A stretch of DNA of 64,000 nt, filler included, from Globobulimina sp. (lineage: Eukaryota): the NCBI GenBank assembly GCA_003354225.1. It is 27 parts of 27 records of this genome, joined end to end, with 100 filler letters (N's around TTAATTAATTAA, not from the genome) between each part and the next. Parts side by side here need not be neighbours in the genome. Positions count along the whole stretch, not along the records: positions 61,729 to 64,000 come from PIVH01007746.1; 26 more parts are not named here. One strand, given 5' to 3'. A program made the position numbers and the translations under genes. Of this stretch, positions 5,966 through 64,000 are shown in pieces (within the stretch, counting starts at the first letter, position 1; each line of letters starts with the position of its first letter). The notes under the pieces were generated by a model. The model was not told the DNA's origin. It did not search any database and saw only the letters and a list, made by a program, of their open reading frames with translations.

Positions 5966-7028
5966 ATGAGCGACGATAACAAGAACGAATCCAAAGAGCA
6001 GACAGACTCTACACAATCCGACAAACTCCAAAAAGAAAAAGACAAGAAAAAAAAAGAAAAGGAGAAAGAGAAAGAAAAAGAATTGGACAATCAAAAAGCG
6101 TTAAATGAGGAGGAAATCCGTTTGATGAAAGCCTATTCCTTTGGTCCCTACGACGACGACATCAAAGCCTTAGAACTCGGCAGCAAACAACGAATGGCCG
6201 ACATCGAGAAGGCGATGGGAATCAAAGAGTCGGATCGTGGCTTAGCCCCACCCTCTCAGTGGGACTTAAACAGTGACAAAGTGGCCTTGCAACAGGACCA
6301 ACCTTTGTTAGTCGCCCGTTGTACTAAAATCATCCAACGCGGCGCCGCCGAGGACGAGCGCGAATATATGATCGTCATCCGGCAAATCGCCAAATACGTT
6401 GTTGACTTAGGCGAGAATGTGGCGCCCACCGATATCGAGGAAGCGATGCGTGTCGGCGTAGATCGCAGTAAATACCGGATACAAATCCCATTGCCGCCGA
6501 AAATCGACGCTTCAGTGACTATGATGACCGTGGAGGAGAAACCGGACGTGACCTATGACGATGTGGGAGGCTGCAAGGAGCAGATTGAGAAATTGCGCGA
6601 AGTGGTGGAATTGCCCTTGTTGCAACCTGGCAAGTTTGTAGCTTTAGGCATTGACCCACCGAAAGGAGTGCTGTTATACGGGCCTCCCGGCACCGGCAAG
6701 ACGCTCTGTGCGCGAGCCGTGGCCAACAGAACCGACGCTACCTTCATCCGCGTCATTGGCAGTGAGTTAGTACAGCGATATGTGGGCGAAGGTGCAAGGA
6801 TGGGTATGTTCATTCATTTATATTTTTATTTTGCAAAAAAAAACAACAAAAAAACTTCTTGCTTACTTGCTTGAAACTTTTTTTTTATATTTTTATGTTT
6901 TATACTTTCCCGGAATGAGTCAAAAATCGCAATTTGCTATCCTTGCACTTGTAGTTCGTGAGTTATTTCAAATGGCGCGTAGTCGTAAGGCGTGTATAAT
7001 ATTTTTCGATGAAATTGATGCGATTGGC
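5966..7028 (+). CDS. PSMC2: 26S proteasome AAA-ATPase subunit Rpt1/PSMC2, 3'-partial (intron 6804-6954)
   Basis: [40 protein letters not shown], Walker A GPPGTGKT; splicing restores [30 protein letters not shown] (Walker B). Confidence 0.97.
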
Positions 7029-17329: not shown

Positions 17330-18805
17330 ATGGTCATCTATAAAATATTACAATTTAATATAAACGGACTAATAAGCCCATCCAAAATGTCCCAAGAATC
17401 AAAATGCCATAAAATAAATCAAATAATGCAATCCAAACAGATCGATTTCCTCCTACTGCAGGAATGGAGTGCTACACTCCGATACCCAATAAATCCGAAT
17501 GATACACACTACACAGATAAACATAATGTAATGCACGCACTAAAATTCCCAATAAAATTCTTCCCAAACTATAATGTCCATCATATTGGCACAGAAACAG
17601 CGATCCTGTACCGTAAAACATTAAATATCACTCCATTACCACCACCACCAAATTATAACCATAATGATCGAACAAAAAACTGCCACATAACAAGCGTAAT
17701 CCTGCATAGCGGTGACCGACACATTGGAATACATTCACTCTATAACTGTCCGAATAATCCAAATATCGATCAGTTATTTGATTACCCATTCACTGTTGAT
17801 CAGAATGTGATTGCAGGAGATTTCAATATCCCCAATGTAATATGGGGGAGCAATAGATCAACAACAGAGTCATGCAACTTTGTTGATGCAATCCACTTCC
17901 ATAATTGGCAGATTCTTAATATTAATAATCCATCATACACACACATCCATAAATCGTATGGCACCAAATCCAATATAGATCTGACATTAATCTCAGATGA
18001 TCTAAAACATACTAAATGGAATATTCTCCACTCGCTATACGACAAAGACTGCTCAGACCATATCCCAATCATCACAGCCTTCGAAGTTTCCCATGATTAT
18101 GGATTCGAAGAAGACAGAAAAACGTGGAACTTAGCTAGCCACTCAAAGTGGGAAAAATACGAAAAACAACTACAAGAAACGCTGGAAAACACAAATTTTG
18201 ATAATAATCCGCATCTATATACAGAACAATTAACATTTATTATTCTATATGTATCTGAACAAACCATCGGATATAAGACCTTCTATCGAGGCCATAAACC
18301 ATGGTGGAATAATAAAATAAAGAAACTAAAGAAAAGGTGCAAAAGAATACGACGCAGAATGCAAAGAATGAAACGAAACGCAAAGAGATTGAACAGATGC
18401 TTCCATAGTTTCCCCCGATATAAGAAAGAAAAGAAACTGCTGAATAAATTCCAATCCCTTAAATATAAAAATATAACCATTGCGAAAGCGAAATACCATG
18501 ATAAAATAAATAATTATATACAAACATGCAAGGACTATGGCCGCAGATTCTGGCGGACCATATCCGGCAATAAATCCAATCAAACAAATACTAATAATAT
18601 CCCACCATTAAACTACAAAAATAAATCCAATATAACTGACCCAAAACAACAGGCAAAGGCGTTACACGAAGCAATGACGCGGCCACCTAAACCACCATCA
18701 AATCCAACCCATGAAAAATGGCATGAATACATAAATAAGTTTGTCCCACAGTATCTGATAAACCACCGTGATAATCCGGTACCAAATAATGATGATATAC
18801 AGTAG
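17330..18805 (+). mobile_element. Non-LTR retrotransposon ORF2: APE (EEP) endonuclease plus linker, ending before the RT domain
   Basis: ILQFNINGL, LLLQE, SLYNCP, IAGDFN, SNIDLTL, SDHIPI, then linker motifs KPWWN and FWRTI. Confidence 0.92.
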
Positions 18806-18904: not shown

Positions 18905-19079
18905 NNNNNNNNNNNNNNNNNNNNNNNNNNNNNNNNNNNNNNNNNNNNTTAATTAATTAANNNNNNNNNNNNNNNNNNNNNNNNNNNNNNNNNNNNNNNN
19001 NNNNAATGGGTCATCCCTTATATGCTGGCATACAAGCTTTTTAATAATTTTACTGTTTACTAAAAATCTTGTTTGCTCC

Positions 19080-20832
19080 ATGGCACAATCGAACCAATGG
19101 TATTTTGAATGGAACGACGGTTCCTACCGCCCATACGATACCACTATCACTGGATGGTTAAACAACGCCAATATTGGTGATCATACAGTCGTTCCTATTC
19201 ATGGCAATAAATATCAAATTCATAAACATTCAAAGCATGAATGCACGCAAACTAATGTTCGATCCCAATTTATGAGGAAAGGCATCAACCAACAAAAATA
19301 TGACCAACAATACAATCACTGCGATAATAACGGAACAGTGAAGCCATTTCCTGCCGATAGCGATGATTATCATTGGTATTGGACGGATGACAAAGCTCGC
19401 TTACATCCGTTTGACTATATAGTATCGCAAAGGATTGATGTTTTAAGCAATGGTGACTCAATGAAGCATAATGCGATGCGAAATCAATATGAATTGGTCA
19501 GATTAACCAACAACAGCGGAAAACAGACAAATATCAAATCCAACAAAACGAGAAAGATTTGCAAAATGCACTCAATGCAAATGCAAAAACATAATCAAAG
19601 TCGCAATAAATACTCGCCATCCAATCACAGCAATGATGATGAAAAACAGTTAAATATTTCGCTCACTTCTGTGAACCACTGAACTGACAGTCACTTCTTT
19701 GAATGTTATGACGTTCACAGAGTTATTGATAAATGGTATTGGAAGGACGACAATGAAGAGTTCCATTCTATGAATGATTGGTTGTCCATGAAAATAAACA
19801 ATTTAACCATTGGTGAGTCCATGAAACAGAAAATTAGAAACACAACGTACGAATTCAAGAAAACTAACCTCGGCCAAGGCACTCAACGCAATACAAAGAG
19901 CAATAAAATACGTGAGATGAAGCTCGCTATTTATGGCTGGTATTATGAGCAAAATGACAAATCTCTGAAAGCATATTCTGATGACTTAAATAAGCGATTA
20001 AATGCTCTGCCAATCAGTGGTTCTTTTACATTTGCAATAAAAAATGCAAAGTATGCAGTGACCAAACTATCCAAAAACCAGGCAAAGCAAAGGAATGCTA
20101 CAACAAATGTCGAAAGAAATGTGGTGTATAAAATGACTTTGAATGATCAACAGAATGAAAATGCAAAACCAAGGGGGAAATCAACCGGCGATTGGCTGCA
20201 GAAACGGTATGCAAAAGCGATGCAATTAGGTAAGATTGATAAGGTCAAATTGGTTACAAAACGCAATTTGAAGGAAGATTCCGCAGAAAGTCATTTTCGA
20301 CGATGTGAGTCTCAGTTTATGCGATCATGTCAGAACGGCGGAGCTGCAGCAAACGGATTAAACAAAACTATCACCGAAGTGGAGTATATTATAAATCCCA
20401 AATTGATCAAACAGTTTGAGGCAAAGAAGAGGAAATTAATGAAAACGAATAAATGTAACGAAAAGAAATTAAATATAATATTGGCATGGCATGGCACTGC
20501 GGCCACCAATTTAGATATTAAATATCGTACAAAATAATTTTAGTTTATCGAAATTAGGAGCACATACCGGTAATAAAGGCGCGTATGGCGCTGGCATATA
20601 TTTCAGTGAGTTTGCCAATGTGAGTCAAGCGTATGGTGACGGCTTGTTGCTATGTAAGGTGATGCTGGGCAAACAATACCAAATGAACACTAGCAATGCT
20701 GCGGTTGGAAGGACATTGGAAGCAGGATATGATTCACATGTTGTTGTGAGTGGTGCCAATAGTCAGTATGGACAGGAGGTGGTTATTTTTGATACAGATC
20801 AAATATTGCCTTGTTATATCGTCAGATATTGA
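19080..20832 (+). pseudogene. WWE-repeat PARP (ADP-ribosyltransferase), frameshifted at about 20517-20520; intron 19649-19720
   Basis: Four WWE-like repeats (WYFEW, WYWTD, WYWKD, WYYEQ...). Catalytic domain WHGT / GAYGAGIYFS / LLLCKVMLG / YDSH / QEVVIFDTDQILPCYIV is split over two frames. Confidence 0.8.
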
Positions 20833-30469: not shown

Positions 30470-31288
30470 TCTTTCAATTCCGAAGGGGCTCTCCTCTTAA
30501 CATGCACTAGTAAGAAAACTTTGTTATGATCCAATGTCGCAGGTATATTGGAGACAAATAACACATAATGAAACTGTAGCAAATATATACATTCAAAAGT
30601 GTTAAAACACATATTCTGGCGATTATAAATCATGTTGAAAATATTTGTTCATTGGCGTAAATATGGTATCCATCACAAATTGAAATACTTGAAATCTTTG
30701 CGTTGGAAGCTTCTCACTTTCTTCTTTATTATTTCCATCCTGCATTTTCTTACTTTTTTTGCCTTTCCTGTGTTTTNNNNNNNNNNNNNNNNNNNNNNNN
30801 NNNNNNNNNNNNNNNNNNNNTTAATTAATTAANNNNNNNNNNNNNNNNNNNNNNNNNNNNNNNNNNNNNNNNNNNNTTGGTCTATTTCAGGTTATGTGCA
30901 AAACAAACTATATTCTTATTAATTGTTTGAATTTGAAAATATACAGAAACTTAATATAATCTGAATTGGTCAACATTTGAATACGTCAAGCAAGCTGTAG
31001 AAAATAAATAATTATAAAAACAAAAATAAATTAAATTAAGTAGTTTTTGTCATCTTGTTCGTCTGTTCAGTTCGCAGTAAGTTTTTCTCATCTTTAGCAT
31101 GGCAGCCAACAAACAAAAAGGTATTTTGTAAAACATTTTAGCGTTTAACATTTATTAATATTCAGGAAACACCACAATCGTGTGAGAATCATGCCGTATT
31201 TCGACAGGCAGACGGCACCAATTGAAAGAGGCTTTTGCTGCAGTACACTGACACTCACTGTCTGTGATATTTGTAATAATAATGTTAG

Positions 31289-32643
31289 GCGACAAGCAAG
31301 AGACGGCGGTGTCCATCGGGAGGCAGTCGCTGATGATCGACAGCAATATGCTCGACTCGGACTTGATGTACTTAGTGGGGCGGCGGCCTCCGAACTTGAA
31401 AGACATTGCCGGCCTCGAGAAGCAAATGCGGCGCATCGACAAGAAAGTGAGCAACTTCATGGCGCAAATCGAGGAGCAGCACTCTGGCGATCGCGACAAT
31501 GCCTTGCGGGTTTGGCCGGCGCTCATCTTAAACGGCGACGCCTTGGAAATGTGCCTGTCGTCGCAGAGCATCCTGGAGAAGTTCGTGGTGCTCTTCTCGT
31601 ACTGCTCCACCATTATCTGTAATCGGTGCGCGCCGTCGCAGAAAGCGATGCTAGTCTGGATGGCCAAGAACAAGTTGGACGGCGTGGCCTTGGCCATCGG
31701 CGACGGCGCCAACGATGTGTCGATGATCCAGGCGTCCAATGTCGGCGTCGGCCTGATGGGCAAGGAAGGCACTCAGGCTTCGCTGGCGGCGGATTTCGTG
31801 ATCCACAGATTCAAGCACCTGATCCGTTTGCTGTTCGTGCACGGCCGGTACGCTTTTTTGCGCACTGCGCAGGTTTCCCTGCTGTCGCTCTACAAAAACA
31901 TGGCGTTTATGCTGACCATCTGCTACTACGGAGCGTATTCGCTGTACACCGCGCAGTCGTGTTTCGACCCGTATTTGATGTCTGCCTTCAATCTGCTGTT
32001 CGTGGCGCTGTTTCCTTTGGTAGTGGGCGCCTTTGAGCAGGACATCAATGCAAAGACTTGCTTGTGGCACCCCGCCGCCTATTACTTCTTCAAAAGCAAC
32101 TCCTTCTTCACCATCAAGTACTTTTTGTTCTGGATGTTCACGGCGGCGTGGCAGTCGCTTGTCTGGTTCTCCATCGCCATTCTCGTCTACAATGACAATT
32201 TGGATCTGTGGCAGTCGGGCGGCCATAGCAAGAATGGCGGTTTGTATGTGTTTGGGACGCAGATATTTACGACCAATGTGATTGTGATTTGCGCCAAGAT
32301 GATGATGGAGACTTATCATTGGAACTGGACCTATTATGCGTCGACGATGGGCGGCATTGCCATTTATATCATTGCGTTGGCGGTGTTGTCGAATTGGCTG
32401 TATTTGGACTCGGATATGTTTAATGTGATGCAATTTACCTTGAACTGCAGCATGACGTGGCTCATTTTGATTATTCAGTGTGTCCTGTGTTTGTTTCCTG
32501 GCATTTTGTACAATTTGTGGAAGCGCGAAAGATTCGCAAATTTGTCCACGGTGCTGTATGAAGCGCAAAAATTCGGATATCTCACCAAAAATGGCATTCC
32601 GAGAGCCACAAACGACATAATTGAGGATTATTTGACGAGATGA
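31289..32643 (+). CDS. P4-type ATPase (phospholipid flippase), C-terminal exon
   Basis: GDKQETA follows an AG acceptor; RCAPSQKA, LAIGDGANDVSMIQ, LLFVHGR, YKN; TM helices. Confidence 0.95.
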
Positions 32644-45529: not shown

Positions 45530-47339
45530 TTATGTCAACAAACACCACATAATGGTAAACTTTGGGAACTTCATAGTTTTTTTCTTAAACTTTCTGAACC
45601 TCTTTCTCAAAAACGGCACTTTCTTCAACTGATCAAAATACCGCTTACTCAATTTATCGTATTCCACCGTATTATTCACCGCCACTTCCTCCGCCTGCGC
45701 CGGCGGCAAAATCTTTTGCAATCCGTTCAAAGTCTCACTTTCCGTCATTCCAATGGTTAACATATGAATCCCTTTGCAGTTCGCCAACAAAAACTTGACC
45801 GAGTCCCAAATGGGCGTCTTGGGCTTGAAGCACTTGACAAATAACTGGCACTTCTTGAGATTCTTGCATTTGTTCGCAAGGTGATATATAGTGTCCGAGC
45901 TCAAGCAGCAAGCCCAAGAATCGATGTCGACGTTTTGATGCGGCGTAGTGAGCCGAAAGAAATCCAGATTCTCCAACAACGGCATTCGACTGAAACACTC
46001 CTTGACAAAGTCCTCCTGCACAGACACCGGGATCGCGAACTCCGTCACCGAGCAAGGAATCAGATGCGAGATGTTGGTGAGAGCTAAGCGATGATGTGAA
46101 TGGAAGTTCCTATTCGGATGCCGGGGCCCTAAGATGTTGACATTCAAAGTGCGCAAGTTATTGAAGTTATAGATCATATTCACCACATCGTCGCTGCGCG
46201 ACAACGCCGCGCAATGAATGTGTTGAATGGTCGGTATGTACGCTAAGGATTGCAGCCAGCAATACCCTCTCCGCGAGATATGGCGACAGCGCACAAACAA
46301 GGTGTCTATGACATTGCTGTTGAAGCTGGCGGAATATTTGCGTTTGTACGCGAAGTAGGCGGCGATGTCGGCTATGTCGGTGTGGCCGATGTGGCGCTTG
46401 ATTTGCCGCAAGCAGTGCTTCCCTAAGATCTGCATGATGTGGTTCCAGGCATTCCAGTCGTTTTCCTCTATGCTGCCCTCAAAAGTGATGATTTGCAGCA
46501 AGCGGCAGGAACGAAGCAAGAAGGACTCGAAGTAGGCGGTGTTGTAATTCATGTCGAAGTTGGCATAGATGGACACCTTCATTCTGTCGCCGCTGTGTTG
46601 GCACAGTTTGGTGTCGGCGTTGTTGGTGTCGTGGTAAGTGGGCGGGCTATTTTTTTGTGTTTGCGACTCGTTGTAAATATTTCGGATGACGGTGATGGGG
46701 AATTTGATGGATTTCCATACGTTTGGGTCGCCGCATAAGGTTCGAAATTCGTGGCAGACCAAAGGCAGTGTCGTCAGCAAGATGTTGAAGGAGAAATAGT
46801 GCGAAAATAAGTGCAATAACCACGAGGAGGGTAAGTGCAATAAATTGGATAAGATCAGCGGCTCTTTTTCTTTTTCTTTTTTCTTCACAGTCAAGTCGAG
46901 TGTCAGCAATCTAGGTAAATAAAAAGAAATAAATGTATTTGTGAGGTGTTTTGTAGATAAATTTTAACTTTTTTTTATTTTTTTTAGTGATCGGTAGTTT
47001 ATTGGGACTCATATCGAGTTCGGTTGATATTGAATAATGTTCTTCTTCTTCAGAGGCGGAGTCAGTGTCGGTTTCATTCTCTTTGTTTTCTGAATTGTTA
47101 TTATTATTCGCGTCGTTCATAATATTGAGGTTTGATATGTCTTTATTTATATGTAATAGATGATAATACCACTCATTGATAATGAGAGTCTCCTGTTCGA
47201 TTTGTGGGACGTACGTCGATGCTATGATTCGCATCCACGACCTAAACTGACCGATATTCGTCTCTGCCTTCCATTTGATGAATGCTGTTAAGTCTCGATC
47301 TGTGCAATGATCCAAACAATGATTTAAATGATGCGACAT
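45530..47339 (-). CDS. F-box/LRR-like protein (intron 46911-46968)
   Basis: A phase-2 intron joins ORFs 46911-47339 and 45530-46909. F-box LLHLPSSWLLHLFS..LPLVCHEFRTL...VW, followed by LRR-like repeats. Confidence 0.7.
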
Positions 47340-54611: not shown

Positions 54612-56596
54612 GTATTAACACCGATACTGATCCCGATATGAATGCGCAGTCGATGATGGTCCGGAGATTTCTGACTGTTTTAGCAATAAATAATTCCTGT
54701 TACCCGGTGTCTGACGCCGTAACTGGTCAGCTTTCAATCCGCGCAGCCTCGCCAGATGACGAATGTTTGACATGTTTTGCGCAGTTTATAGGCGTACAAC
54801 TCACTCAACGCAAGCCCCCGTGCATAAAATTAAATATATTCCCCGATGGTTTGGCCAATGCAGAGAGTCAATGCCAAGAGAATTGGGAGCAATTAGCAGA
54901 GCTTCCATTCACATCGAAACGCAAACGAATGAGTGTGATCGCTCGCAATTTGCAAACAGGAAACATCCATTTTACAATGAAGGGCGCCGACAGCGAAATG
55001 ATGCGACTAATTCATGATTGGAAAGGGGATGACTGCAGCAAATATGTGGAAAAGTATATAGAAGAATATAGCGAACAGGGATTGAGGACATTGATCGTCG
55101 CAGAGGCCATATTCGACAGTGAGTGGTGGGATGATGCGCAAACCGGATGGTTTCACAAATATGTTGAGTTTGAGCAGGATACGTTGATAATGGAAGAGAC
55201 CGAAAAGGGGCATATTAAAGGTATCTGCGGCAATGCCTGTAGAAAATGCAAATGGTACGAACGCATCGAGAGAGCCGCAAAATGCCAGTTGTTGGGTTGT
55301 ACCGCAATCGAAGATAAGTTGCAAGAGTCTGTGCCTGAGACAATATCCGCGATGCTCGATGGCGGCATAAATGTGTGGGTTTTGACTGGCGACAAACAGA
55401 AAACCGCAGAGAATATCGGCATTGCTTGCAATTTGTTAGAACCCGCAATGGAAAAACATGGCTTGTTGTTTAAATTGACGGTGGCCAACGTACACAAATT
55501 GCAAGAGACTATGAGCTCTGCCATTGATGCAATTGTCGAGAGTCGGCAGTGTCAACCTCAAGCCTCGGGATTGGTGATCAACAGCAAGGCGCTGAAAAGC
55601 ATCATGGACAATGCCGTGCTGCAGAGCTTATTTCTGGAACTGGGCAAATTGTGCAAGTCTGTGATTGGCGTCCGATTGCAACCAAACCAAAAAGCGCAAA
55701 TCATTGAGTTTATTCAGCAACGAACGGGAGCGCGAACTTTAGCGATTGGCGATGGCAGCAATGATGAGCCGATGATTCGGACAGCTTCGGTTGGTGTCGG
55801 TATAGCTGGTTTGGAAGGCACCGCTGCTGTGCGAGCCAGTGATTATTCCATTGGGAAATTCAAATTCTTGAAACGTTTGTTGTTTGTGCACGGCAGGTTG
55901 AATTATAAAAGAATCAGCACGCTGATTTGCTATATGTTTTATAAAAATGGCTTGCTGGCATTGTCGTCGTTTTTCTTTGGTTTTTGCAATGGTTTCAGTG
56001 GAGTCAAGCCGTACAGCGAATGGCCATTCCAATTGTATAACATTGTGTTTACGTGTGTGCCAATATTATTATTTGCAGTGATCGATCGAGATTACAGTGA
56101 TGAATATTTAATTAGTCATCCCCAACTGTATAAGTATGGGCAAACTTGTTCCAATCTGAATACAAAAGTATTTTTTGTTTGGATTATTGAGAGCTGGATG
56201 GCCTCGCTTTTATTGACATTTCTACCGCTTTATTGTTATGTATATAACACCGCGGTGGATTCTACCGGACAATCGGCGGGGATTTGGACTGTCGGCATTG
56301 TTATATTGACATCGATTGTAATTACTGCAAATCTGCGACTGTCGTTTGTTACGAATACGTGGATGTGGCTGACTCACATATTTCTATGGGGGTCAATTGT
56401 TGCTTATTTTCTTTCTATGATGATAGTAAACAGTACGACCTTTTTTGGATATGATATTTATTGGATTGTTTTCCGTGCGATGGGGACGTCGAGGTATTGG
56501 TTGACTGTGTTGGTAGCAACCATTGTTGCGTTATATATACCTGCCACTTATGTGACATTTACCACGTTGAGGAAAAAAGCAAAGAGAAAAGAGTAG
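54612..56596 (+). CDS. P4-type ATPase (phospholipid flippase), 5'-partial
   Basis: ASPDDE, FTSKRKRMSVI, KGADS, GLRTL, LGCTAIEDKLQ, WVLTGDKQKTA, LAIGDGSND, FYKN. Confidence 0.96.
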
Positions 56597-56984: not shown

Positions 56985-58673
56985 TAGAGCACGGAGTCGA
57001 CATCGGGATCCCTACCGATAGTGAGCCTAGTATTCGCTTAACGGGTCGGAACCCGACGATCGACCCTAAGACATGTGTCTGTGTCTGCAAAACCGTTTTT
57101 AAGTGGCATACCCGCCGTCAGATCTTAGGTCCTTTTCTAAAAAGTCAAGGGAAAGCCATGGGGCTTCGCCTCAACGGCATCCATGGTGTGCCGAAACCAA
57201 ACGGCGACACCAGACCGGTGATCAATAATTCCGACCCTAAATCCCGCTATCACGAGTCAACCAATGGACACATCATAGAGGCTCTGAAAACAGTCCAATA
57301 TGTTGGTCTACGGTCGATAGTCGCGACGGCGGATAGGGAAGGTCCAACCGCTGATATGTGGTCGAGAGACTTGGAAGATGGATATTTTAATTGCTCCATC
57401 AGATGGAGTCAGTGTCGGTTTTTAGCATTCGAGTGGGCAGACCGGCTGTGGGTCCCAGTCGTCATGGTGTTCGGATTGGCGTCAGCCCCGAACATTTTTA
57501 CGAACTTTATGAGAACCCCCCTCAAAGCCATAAGAATGCGCAACCCGTCCATCAGTTATCGGATGATTTCGAAAGAAAGAGTCAATGAGCTATTAATTCG
57601 TAATGAGCCAGATTGTCCAGTCTGGAAACATTACCTCTGTTATCCCATGATTCGTGTTTACGTTGATGACATAATTGGCGTGCATCGAAATAAACATCTC
57701 GCGTTGAGACAATTCTTGAATACTGGTAAAGTATTGAAAGAGTTGAATTTGACAGCGAAAGAGTCAAAGGATCAATGGCCATCATCGACCCCCATTATTT
57801 TAGGGGCTCATTGATTTAGCTGAGCGGAGAGTTTTCCTTACCCAGGAAAAATTAGACCGCTACGTTGCAGATATCAACGACTTATTGTCAAGGAAATCTT
57901 TTCCTATTTCGCGCCTATTTACGGTTATTGGGCGAGCCAGACATGCCTCTGATTTTTTAAGGCTATTAGCAATTTTTGCTCGCAGCCTTGATGTTTACGT
58001 ATATTCCACCTGGTTCAAAACCCGACACTTAAAATGTAATCAATTCCTAAAGATTGACTTGCAATTAGTGATCTGGGCCTTTAAACGTGCGGCGACAGTA
58101 GGAATCTCCTTCGATTATATTTTAAAACCCGCCAACGCCAATGATTACACAGCCTATACCGACGCCGCCACAGTCGTCGGCGGGATCGGGGGCTACATCC
58201 ATCAAGAAGGAGGTAATTGGTTCCAATGCGCCTGGGAGGACATTGAATTATACCATCCGGAAAATCGGGACATCCAGTGGAGAGAGATGTGCGCTGTCTT
58301 GGTATTGTTACGACTTAACATCAAGAAATTACGAAATATGGCAATCACCGTTTGGTGTGACAACATGCCAGTTGTTTTTATGATTTTACGATGTCGAGCA
58401 CCTTTAACCCGCCCAGACTTGCAATATCTCTTAGTCGAGTTAGCGCAAATGCTGATCACTAACGAAGTACACATCTGGATAGACCATATTGAAGGAGAGA
58501 AAAATTTGACAGCGGATAAATTATCTCGTTTCATGGAGGATCCTTTGGGTGACTTGTCTTTCCAGTTAGCGCCCAGGAAAGACAGTATGTGCAATGTACG
58601 GAGGATTACACAATCATACGCAACCGGTTGTAAAGACTATGTCATTGACAGAAAATTTTTACATACTAAATAA
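56985..58673 (+). mobile_element. DIRS/Ngaro-like retrotransposon RT-RNase H (frameshift at about 57800-57806)
   Basis: HGVDIG, GPF, VPK...RPV, DLEDGY, FGLASAP..F, YVDD; LG/LID broken at a GGGG run. RNase H: YTDA..GIGG, E..AV, WCDN, HIEGEKNLTADKLSR. Confidence 0.9.
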
Positions 58674-61628: not shown

Positions 61629-61872
61629 NNNNNNNNNNNNNNNNNNNNNNNNNNNNNNNNNNNNNNNNNNNNTTAATTAATTAANNNNNNNNNNNNNNNN
61701 NNNNNNNNNNNNNNNNNNNNNNNNNNNNGATGATGTAGTAACATTTGTCACCCGATTTATCTTCCTAATCTTAGCATGTTAAATGTGTTGTTTATATTAA
61801 TATTTCTTTATCTTCCAATTGGTATATTATATTATAATTTATACATTACTATTTTGATTGCATCTAAAAAAT

Positions 61873-62412
61873 TCAAATATTATTCATCAACTTTTGTAAT
61901 ACATGTTTCACAAATAATTTTGTACATAAGCTATTTGTTTTATCAAGTTTCACAATAGAAATATTTATCAAGTGCATCCGTTTGTCTTGTGAAATAATAC
62001 TGTCAAATTTTTGTATTCGACTCATCAATTTAGTCTCCGTATACATATGCAATGCATCTATTACAATATCAACTTTGTTTGATTGACCTTTTCGGCAGTA
62101 AAACACTCCGAGTGCTCCCGCAATACAATAAACATGAAGTATTTTTAAACTAGTAATCCCATCTTCTAGTATTTGGTCGCATACATAATTGAATGTCGAT
62201 GTCAAGTTAGCTGTTGGTTTATCGAAATGTTTGACTAATTGGTCATATTTATCGCGACATTTTTGCTCCAAATCATAGCCCATTTTTCGTAAATTTAATT
62301 GTGCATGGCTGGGAACATCATCTATCGCATATCTACTGTAGGGCAAAAGATATTTCTCCTGACCTATTATTCTCCATAATACATAATCACTTGCCAAATT
62401 TTGCGTAGTCAT
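61873..62412 (-). CDS. Divergent Bcl-2 family (Bok-like) protein, probably viral
   Basis: BH4-like TQNLASDYVLWRI, BH3-like LRKMGYDLE, BH1-like FNYVCDQILEDGITSLKILHVYCIAGALGV, degenerate BH2 LMSRIQKFDS. Confidence 0.8.
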   Translation of the reverse strand: MTTQNLASDYVLWRIIGQEKYLLPYSRYAIDDVPSHAQLNLRKMGYDLEQKCRDKYDQLVKHFDKPTANLTSTFNYVCDQILEDGITSLKILHVYCIAGALGVFYCRKGQSNKVDIVIDALHMYTETKLMSRIQKFDSIISQDKRMHLINISIVKLDKTNSLCTKLFVKHVLQKLMNNI

Positions 62413-62462
62413 ATTGAAATTATGAATAATAGTACTTGTTTCTACTATTTATAGCTCTTTTA

Positions 62463-63362
62463 ATGAATGCCTTAAGGGCAAAATTGTTAAATATAAGCAG
62501 CACGCCTGATAATTCACTTTTAGTGTTACGTGAAGCGCTATACCATGGTGCAATGGCGCTTAATGATAATGAGGTAAAAATGATAGCTCAATTACTAAAC
62601 AACCGATTTCAAAATAGTTTTGGAGTCGATATAATAAGTTTTGATCAGCAATTTTTGGAAAATGTTAATACTATTTGTCTTACTAAAATTGTAAAAAATG
62701 AAAAGCTGGTTTTAAAGTCTGAAATAGAAATTATGTTAAATTCGAAGTTTGGACGGGGCATTAATTTTATAAATTTACCACAGGAGGGACGGTCTCCGAT
62801 TTTAAACATATTGGACAGGTTTTACGAAAATTATTTACATTACTACGTCAAATGGCATTGTTTTCGACGGCCGACAATGTCTAATCATTTCTATTTCTCT
62901 GACTATGAACAAGCTCATTATGAACTACCACATACATCAAACACAGAGAGTGAGAAAGTCATATTGAAAAATGCTAAATCTTTCTTGTCCAAATATTTAA
63001 AAATGTTATTAATTCGTCATTTTGATCTAGAACCCGATGTTTTCCCAGCGTTGGCATATTTAAAGTTTTACAAATACGTCAATGATTACATCTTCGACGA
63101 AATCTGTCAAAACGATAAAAAATTTCTTTATGAGTTAGCTTCCAAACGTAGACCAGTTCCTGATGGTTTTGTTTTAAAAAGTCAAATATACTCGAAATTT
63201 TATCACCCAGAAGTGTTGGCTTCGTACATAAGCTCATTTGAATCTTGGGTTAATTTGAAAGATATGGTAGAACCAATTTACGTTACAATGTGTCAATCGG
63301 TATTGGACTTTGTAAAAGCAGAGCCTTATATAAAATTGGGTACTTTTATACCATTTTTGTAA
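62463..63362 (+). CDS. Unknown protein, paralog A (intronless)
   Basis: About 299 aa from ATG 62463; homologous to the downstream ORF. Confidence 0.7.
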   Translation: MNALRAKLLNISSTPDNSLLVLREALYHGAMALNDNEVKMIAQLLNNRFQNSFGVDIISFDQQFLENVNTICLTKIVKNEKLVLKSEIEIMLNSKFGRGINFINLPQEGRSPILNILDRFYENYLHYYVKWHCFRRPTMSNHFYFSDYEQAHYELPHTSNTESEKVILKNAKSFLSKYLKMLLIRHFDLEPDVFPALAYLKFYKYVNDYIFDEICQNDKKFLYELASKRRPVPDGFVLKSQIYSKFYHPEVLASYISSFESWVNLKDMVEPIYVTMCQSVLDFVKAEPYIKLGTFIPFL

Positions 63363-63465
63363 ATTATAATAATACTCAAATAAAATCATAATAAAAGCCT
63401 TAAGGGTAACTTTCCTAAATATAAGAGAGCGTGACTGTTAGTTATCAGTCATAGTCGTACAATAA

Positions 63466-64000
63466 ATGGTGCGAATGATGACCTCTCACTTCCTGTCATT
63501 ATCCCAACATCAGTATGATTTAGCTATAGTCCAAATTGCTAAATTAATTAGTTTTCGGTTTCTAAATTCATTTGGTATACCGTTTGGTTATGACATAAAT
63601 TCTCATATGAAATGTATATGCTATGGCACGACTGCGTTTCAAGCTGAAGATATAGCAATAGTGGAAAAAGATTTTGAACTTCTTGCCAGAAAAGATTTTG
63701 ATTACGACTGCGACTGCCATAAAAGAGAAACTCTTATTTATACTCTAAACTATTTTTATGGTTGTTTTATCAGACAATCTATTAATTGGGCTTTATTCAA
63801 AAAGCCTTTATTACATAAAGATTTTCAAGCAGTCGATTTCGTCACCGCCCATAACGAACTACCAAATTCGATTACTAATATGAGCAGTGGGAAAATATAT
63901 AAAAAAGCTCAACATTTCGTACTTTGGTTTTTAAAATCTATGATCGTTCGTCATTTAGGATTGTTTGACCATGAAATCATGCCTTCATTGATGGCATTGA
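63466..64000 (+). CDS. Unknown protein, paralog B, 3'-partial (absent from the supplied ORF track)
   Basis: Open from ATG 63466 to the window end: MVRMMTSHF...IAKLISFRFLNSFG...WALFKKP...AHNELP...FLKSMIVRHL...IMPSLMAL. Confidence 0.7.
   Translation, partial: MVRMMTSHFLSLSQHQYDLAIVQIAKLISFRFLNSFGIPFGYDINSHMKCICYGTTAFQAEDIAIVEKDFELLARKDFDYDCDCHKRETLIYTLNYFYGCFIRQSINWALFKKPLLHKDFQAVDFVTAHNELPNSITNMSSGKIYKKAQHFVLWFLKSMIVRHLGLFDHEIMPSLMAL

Follow-up and report, generated by a model that had tools for sequence, protein, structure and literature searches.

What is a member of the Bcl-2 family doing in DNA assembled from a foraminifer, and to which genome does its gene belong? This question is raised by the last contig of the window, by which we mean the whole 64-kb stretch of the Globobulimina sp. 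assembly GCA_003354225.1 that was analyzed here. The window consists of 27 contigs of 2272-2276 bases each, arranged by decreasing length and separated by spacers of the form N44-TTAATTAATTAA-N44. Features are not readable across these spacers, and the surroundings of a contig's genes are known from its own 2.27 kb only. The last of the 27 (PIVH01007746.1, positions 61729-64000) is one whole contig of 2272 bases. On its minus strand, at 61873-62412, it carries a complete, intron-free open reading frame (ORF) of 179 amino acids, which its sequence profile and predicted structure identify as a true, very divergent Bcl-2 family protein with a Bcl-2 fold. Members of this family have hitherto been known from animals and from their viruses only. 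The gene adds a new and strongly remodelled member, and its product has no membrane anchor. The reading we favor, tentatively and with a little less than an even chance of being right, is that the gene resides in the foraminifer, which would have acquired it laterally, that it codes for a soluble protein of Bcl-2 fold, and that it belongs to a small TATA-driven cluster together with two orphan paralogues in tandem.

Membership in the family was established first of all by comparison with Pfam. The ORF matched PF00452 (Bcl-2) with 37.4 bits and an E-value of 3.8e-9, above the curated threshold of 31.4, over residues 41-135, corresponding to profile positions 1-96 of 100. When its sequence alone was searched against the PDB with phmmer, the best match was trBcl-2L2 of Trichoplax (6yld, E 6.7e-5), followed by chicken BOK (5wdd, E 0.012) and human BOK (6ckv, E 0.013), with many Bcl-xL and Bcl-2 chains at E 0.5-2. 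A three-sequence profile, built from the ORF and its two close homologues P0001 and P0002, gave 8.4e-8 for 6yld, 1.8e-6 and 3.6e-5 for BOK, and values from 1e-4 for Bcl-2 and Bcl-xL, with 93 PDB sequences at E<=0.01. Among the best 60 of these 93 matches there was no viral Bcl-2 protein, and CED-9-like or other lineage-typical animal forms were absent as well.

The predicted structure points the same way. An AlphaFold model of the ORF, computed from a 9-sequence alignment, has eight helices, a mean predicted local distance difference test score (pLDDT) of 81.7 and a predicted template modelling score (pTM) of 0.71. Foldseek found 113 matches to this model in the PDB at E<=0.001, headed by Bcl-xL, trBcl-2L2, Bcl-2 and Bcl-w (E 4e-5 to 3e-4; template modelling score TMt 0.68-0.76), while chicken BOK came at rank 43. 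VIA-align superposed 122-136 residues at 2.5-3.7 Å with Z 15.6-16.9, Bcl-w, Bcl-xL and Bcl-2 being at Z 16-17; the level quoted for unrelated helical bundles is a Z of about 13. The best structural relatives of the model are pro-survival proteins. By contrast, the viral structure library BFVD yielded no match at E<=0.001. Its best value was 1e-2, and the Bcl-2 homologues of lymphocystis virus, gammaherpesvirus, avipoxvirus and African swine fever virus (ASFV) lay between 1e-2 and 0.4.

The Bcl-2 homology (BH) motifs of the ORF are strongly remodelled. In the alignment, the NWGR of BH1 is replaced by TSLK in the ORF and by TFSK or TYSK in the two close homologues; the basic residue alone is retained, as a lysine (Lys90) at the arginine position. 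The GGW of BH2 has become FDSI in the ORF, and the homologues, which read YGGI and SGGI, keep the two glycines and have lost the tryptophan. BH3, canonically L-x3-G-D, corresponds to L41-R-K-M-G45-Y46-D47, with the Leu and the Gly in their expected places and the Asp one position late; P0004, a canonical relative, likewise lacks the BH3 Asp and reads GEE. D9 and Y10 of helix alpha1 are invariant in 9 of 9 aligned sequences and belong to a BH4-like D-Y-x3-R pattern. A tail anchor is absent: within the last 45 residues, the best 19-residue Kyte-Doolittle mean was 0.54 in the ORF and 0.61 and 0.68 in the homologues, compared with 2.56 and 2.04 in the anchored relatives P0004 and P0008. The C-terminal helices of the ORF model are amphipathic, with pLDDT 62-70.

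Set beside the closest known systems, the ORF shows both similarities and differences. With the pro-survival Bcl-2 proteins (trBcl-2L2, 6yld; human Bcl-xL, Bcl-2 and Bcl-w) it shares PF00452, the helical bundle and the D-Y-x3-R of alpha1, but it differs from them in TSLK, FDSI, the shifted BH3 Asp and the missing tail anchor, at 18-24% identity, and its gene lies among foraminifer-like contigs and not in an animal genome. By sequence, BOK ranks second among the solved relatives, and its alpha5 stretch is strikingly similar, since the phmmer alignment pairs GITSLKILHVYCIAGALGVFYCRKGQ of the ORF with GITWGKVVSLYAVAAGLAV... of both chicken and human BOK. However, BOK retains the W-G of BH1, the GGW of BH2 and the C-terminal anchor, all of which are absent from the ORF, and we found no evidence for a pore-forming role. 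Viral Bcl-2 proteins (from iridovirus, poxvirus and gammaherpesvirus, and A179L of ASFV) resemble the ORF in the common fold, the eroded BH motifs, the intron-free gene and the compact, AT-rich setting, but they are weaker structural matches than the cellular proteins, and the ORF comes without a viral genome context.

A preliminary description of the contig had already taken the ORF for a divergent member of the Bcl-2 family whose BH motifs have been remodelled, and on this point it was right: PF00452 is matched above its cut-off, and the Bcl-2 fold it anticipated is what Foldseek returned. Alignment and hydropathy likewise bear out the losses it listed, namely BH1 W-G, BH2 GGW and the anchor, together with the Tyr at the BH3 Asp position. 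Its label "Bok-like" can be kept only in part. The alpha5 parallel is real, but BOK is second to the placozoan trBcl-2L2, and P0003 and P0004, the nearest database relatives beyond the close pair, are Bcl-2/Bcl-xL/Bcl-w-like.

Relatives of the ORF are few, and the closest of them appear to be constrained. A word-seeded search of 5.8 billion proteins yielded 15 candidates, of which 2 proved to be matches: P0001, with 66% identity, and P0002, with 63%. Each has a length of exactly 179 amino acids, and both are from ENA, on contigs of 1.9 and 1.2 kb. HMMER, run against 1.84 billion representatives, found 7 proteins at E<=0.001, of which P0001 alone reached E<=1e-10; the others were 21-31% identical, with E 1e-5 to 1e-3. 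PF00452 is present in all eight of P0001-P0008, with 51.5 bits for P0001 and 54.9 bits for P0002. Identity is 76% between P0001 and P0002 and 63-66% between either of them and the ORF, and 102 of the 179 columns are invariant across the three sequences.

Sequencing reads added a further, more closely related copy. Of the words sampled from the contig, a fraction of 0.81 is present in one public run, X1; two further runs on that sample, X2 and X3, show no or almost no cover of the contig, and no RNA run among the listed public runs contains it. Logan contigs of X1 span the whole contig at a word depth of about 5-11, no joints were seen, and one of them extends 120 letters beyond position 61729. 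Since X1 also contains pieces that are 85-93% identical over parts of all three genes of the contig (61987-62125, 62302-62320, 63135-63351 and 63771-63885), at a depth similar to that of the main copy, at least one diverged second copy of the three-gene unit exists, whether as an allele, a paralogue, a strain or an integrated copy. Among the 40 listed of its 73 differences, 36 are coding, with 20 in third positions (binomial p 0.005) and 16 synonymous. Two listed changes share one codon; one alone gives a stop, and both together give Ser. The second copy therefore looks constrained too.

The other two genes of the contig are orphans on the opposite strand, the first of them back to back with the Bcl-2 gene. 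Paralogue 1 (62553-63362, plus strand), predicted to be all-helical, has 269 amino acids when read from the ATG at 62553 and 299 when read from the ATG at 62463. Paralogue 2 (63466-63999, plus strand) follows in tandem and is represented by its first 178 amino acids, being cut by the contig end. The two are 26% identical (E 8e-17). Neither belongs to a Pfam family; a search for homologues confirmed none of 492 candidates, and the Atlas gave no match. The AlphaFold model of paralogue 1 has a pLDDT of 39, too poor for a fold search. We also considered whether the paralogues might themselves be Bcl-2 folds, and rejected this given an hhalign probability of 0.45% against the Bcl-2 alignment; a weak PHROG match, to phrog_3862 of unknown function (E 0.0017), was treated as chance.

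Both paralogues are preceded by the palindrome CCTTAAGG and then by AAATATAAG, 10 nt after CCTTAAGGG. The copy upstream of paralogue 1 occupies 62470-62497 and the second 63398-63425, both on the plus strand, the latter ending 41 nt upstream of the paralogue 2 ATG. As a 28-nt pattern, CCTTAAGG...AAATATAAG occurs exactly twice in the window, where shuffles gave an expectation of 0, and as a DNA pattern it was found 0 times in IMG/VR and 0 times in JGI metagenome contigs. Because the motif has been conserved while the proteins diverged to 26% identity, we infer a cis-regulatory role for it, and both copies are putative promoters. The ATG at 62463 lies upstream of the conserved motif, and 62553 is therefore the likelier start of paralogue 1. 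The Bcl-2 gene has a candidate core promoter of its own, a TATAAATA box at 62446-62453 on the minus strand that starts 41 nt upstream of its ATG. The coding strand of its 3' flank, read from the sequence at 61729-61872 (minus strand) to the contig end, lacks a canonical AATAAA; beyond the stop codon of paralogue 1 there are two AATAAA signals. Judged by sequence, the TATA-type boxes and AATAAA signals would be in keeping with genes that are transcribed by RNA polymerase II and have very short leaders. Scanning the window for Rfam families and tRNAs gave no match.

The genes of the contig are closely spaced. Using the ATG at 62553, 140 bp separate the divergent start codons, and 103 bp separate paralogue 1 from paralogue 2. 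The preliminary description had put these distances at 50 bp and about 100 bp; the second figure stands, and the first applies only if the ATG at 62463 is used, the likelier value being 140 bp. The contig packs three intron-free genes into 2.27 kb and has TATA boxes some 40-60 nt ahead of their ATGs, a density higher than is known from animal genomes, and this argues against animal nuclear DNA as the source of the genes.

We then examined the other 26 contigs for evidence of the host. Half of the larger ORFs compared from them (15 of 30) match eukaryotic Pfam families at E<=0.001. These families include EFL1, the NPC1/Patched sterol-sensing domain, two P4-ATPases, proteasome Rpt1, protein kinase, RasGEF and P450, as well as DEP, Kelch, F-box, RanBP zinc finger, 2-oxoglutarate (2OG) oxygenase, endonuclease of the long interspersed nuclear element (LINE) type and reverse transcriptase. 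PDB comparisons of a P4-ATPase and the NPC1-like ORF, and an Atlas search with the P4-ATPase, did not resolve the taxon. The proteasome gene was more informative. Rpt1 (5966-7028, plus strand) has a lysine/glutamate-rich N-terminus and one GTATGT...AG intron of about 150 nt after residues GEGARM. Over 79% of its length, the Rpt1 fragment shows 95% identity to a protein whose label, MMETSP0190, stands for the foraminifer Rosalina sp. (PMC6783311, in the portion available); the next named relatives, from chytrids, red algae and rotifers, are at 65-72%. Two ENA Rpt1 proteins, P0010 and P0012, share 91% identity, and their identity to the Rpt1 of the window is 87-88%. Both end by read-through of the same intron site as the Rpt1 ORF in the window, and therefore come from genomic contigs of related foraminifers. 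With two ENA relatives for each gene and the same relative distances, the Bcl-2 and Rpt1 sets are what orthologues in three related foraminifers would give.

In gene style and composition, the Bcl-2 contig does not stand apart from the rest of the window. Several ORFs elsewhere in the window run for 650-675 codons without a break and take up the whole of their contigs. Uninterrupted frames of up to 675 amino acids were found for EFL1, NPC1/Patched-like and P4-ATPase genes, among other eukaryotic ones, and the spacers between ORFs are 100-160 bp. In the foraminifer Reticulomyxa, genes have on average 2 introns, introns measure 87 bp and the median intergenic distance is 426 bp (Table 1 of PMC13746701). 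Intron-free, closely packed genes fit a foraminifer, and the style is shared by the whole window and is not special to the Bcl-2 contig. By dissimilarity to the pooled rest, this contig ranks 10 (k=3) and 12 (k=4) of 27. The codon usage of its three ORFs correlates with the pool at r 0.75, with a GC content at third codon positions (GC3) of 0.29; the 22 other ORFs range from r -0.09 to 0.90 and from GC3 0.22 to 0.75. The Bcl-2 contig is not a compositional outlier.

It is the match of style and composition to the window, the ENA relatives that parallel those of Rpt1 and the length of 179 amino acids kept in three lineages that lead us to regard the Bcl-2 gene as a resident one. The contig would then be a piece of the foraminifer's own DNA, either chromosomal or a long-resident element, and would hold a compact three-gene cluster in which the Bcl-2-fold gene is accompanied by two fast-evolving, lineage-specific helical tandem paralogues. 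Transcription of the Bcl-2 gene, which is placed back to back with paralogue 1, would be directed by a TATA box of its own, and each paralogue would be driven by the common CCTTAAGG plus TATAAG promoter motif. Most likely, the Bcl-2 gene would have been transferred laterally into this lineage from an animal or virus, arriving in processed form and free of introns, and would have been under purifying selection since then in at least three related lineages. In a preprint on lateral transfer, 26% of foraminiferal transfers were assigned to opisthokont donors, and its main text, as far as available, mentions neither Bcl-2 nor apoptosis (10.1101/2023.01.27.525846).

As to function, the model suggests a soluble, pro-survival-type fold whose alpha1 is BH4-like, whose centre is formed by an alpha5/alpha6 hairpin and in which Lys90 occupies the position of the BH1 Arg. 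Its groove would hold amphipathic, BH3-like helices of partner proteins, and the protein would restrain a death or mitochondrial-stress pathway; it would not form pores, because it could not be inserted by a tail anchor. From the modelled structure, we infer a soluble, groove-using binder of amphipathic helices that may act in this way. Some viral Bcl-2 folds have taken on repurposed, non-apoptotic roles, and by analogy such a role is possible for the ORF protein.

Several points weigh against a foraminiferal residence of the gene. No physical link joins the 2.27-kb contig to a foraminiferal gene, and no repeat and no paralogue is common to it and the other 26 contigs. Rpt1, which marks the sole contig shown to be foraminiferal, is itself atypical (GC3 0.57, codon r 0.28), and the majority of contigs rich in A and T at third codon positions, which the Bcl-2 contig resembles, is taken to be foraminiferal by deduction; binning or filtering of the assembly by composition would make the match in composition partly circular. 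P0001/P0002 and P0010/P0012 may come from different assemblies. The protein searches returned no Bcl-2 homologue from foraminifer transcriptomes, although the collection includes such data (P0009 has a EukProt label). TATA[AT]A is found in 1 of the 13 other readable upstream regions of the window, at -90, and the strong TATA-type motifs of all three genes could mark a separate transcription regime. Finally, passages of PMC8998228 regard Bcl-2 as a metazoan family, found throughout Metazoa and of obscure origin, which raises the prior for contamination or a virus. In the portions available of the literature on Bcl-2 in foraminifers, protists and other non-metazoans, we found no report of a foraminiferal Bcl-2.

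Some of these points would be accommodated if the contig were a fragment of an uncharacterized large DNA virus, or a recently integrated or episomal mobile element, of the foraminifer or of a co-sampled animal. We consider this origin unlikely, though it is the strongest competitor. The captured and remodelled Bcl-2 protein would serve to block host cell death or immunity, and the orphans would form a viral multigene family under a class-specific promoter, a scenario to which we give the same low credence. Three intron-free genes with spacers of 103-140 bp, two tandem paralogues without a relative in any search and a repeated 28-nt promoter-like motif that is unique to this contig within the window are all features that such an element might have, as are TATA-type motifs that are scarce upstream of the other genes. 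The lack of homologues from foraminifer transcriptomes agrees with it, and the 85-93% variants at similar depth in X1 would agree with strains or with multiple integrated copies. The ORF has lost NWGR, GGW and the anchor, and such losses are common among viral Bcl-2 folds.

The preliminary description had gone further and read the intronless, compact layout as the mark of an animal-virus contig. This argument does not hold, since intron-free compact genes are the norm in the window and at least one of the other contigs in the same style is foraminiferal. The k-mer comparison it suggested placed the Bcl-2 contig inside the range of the others, with codon usage also indistinguishable, and virus genes gave no support either: there is no hallmark gene on the 2.27 kb of the contig. 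Pattern scans of IMG/VR with the Bcl-2 ORF, paralogue 1, P0001 and P0002, which reach close relatives only, yielded no confirmed relative, and when JGI metagenome contigs were scanned with alignment A2, 0 of 79 pattern matches were confirmed; the promoter motif is missing from both collections. The cellular Bcl-2 proteins are also the better match, with a best E of 4e-5 in the PDB compared with 1e-2 in BFVD, and viral ones do not appear among the best 60 of the 93 profile matches.

Nuclear DNA of a small animal (prey, epibiont or meiofauna), in which the ORF would be a divergent retrocopied or single-exon Bcl-2 paralogue, is an improbable source: Bcl-2 genes do occur throughout Metazoa (PMC8998228, in part), the proteins closest to the ORF in sequence and fold are cellular ones of animals (Trichoplax trBcl-2L2, BOK and Bcl-xL) and the 1.7 million Logan contigs of X1 indicate more than one clean genome, but no sequenced animal has a close relative, given 7 of 1.84 billion representatives at E<=0.001 and a best identity of 31% outside the ORF's own cluster, the three-member clade is found only on short ENA contigs, CED-9-like or other lineage-typical animal forms are missing from the best 60 of the 93 profile matches, and the composition matches that of the other contigs.

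If the gene is indeed resident, Foraminifera (Rhizaria) would possess a Bcl-2 gene of their own, the first cellular one outside animals, coding for a soluble protein with remodelled BH1 and BH2 and present in at least three lineages; we regard this broader claim as plausible, yet as somewhat more doubtful than the reading of the contig itself. Together with the caspase homologues described in the foraminifer Reticulomyxa (PMC10565124, in the portion available), it would suggest that a giant multinucleate protist has acquired or kept a module for the control of cell death that resembles the one of animals. A rhizarian Bcl-2 would provide a test case for how the fold works without the canonical BH3-only, Bax/Bak and tail-anchor machinery, and it could show the way in which such genes are passed between eukaryotes or viruses. 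Should the contig be viral instead, it would mark an unsampled virus lineage associated with benthic foraminifers.

The remaining contigs yielded some minor observations. The two P4-ATPase (flippase) paralogues, at 31264-32643 and 54638-56596 (both plus strand), are 27% identical and have GC3 values of 0.75 and 0.48, and the F-box ORF at 45530-46909 has a GC3 of 0.68. This spread of GC3 means either that codon bias is strongly heterogeneous in one genome or that organisms are mixed in the assembly. Retroelement pieces were found on the plus strand at 17330-18805, with a LINE-type endonuclease ORF, and at 57158-58673, where a reverse transcriptase ORF is followed by an ORF without a Pfam match. 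At 19005-20534 (plus strand), two adjoining ORFs with shared internal similarity (E 1e-8) may be one repeat-containing gene that is split by a stop or a short intron.

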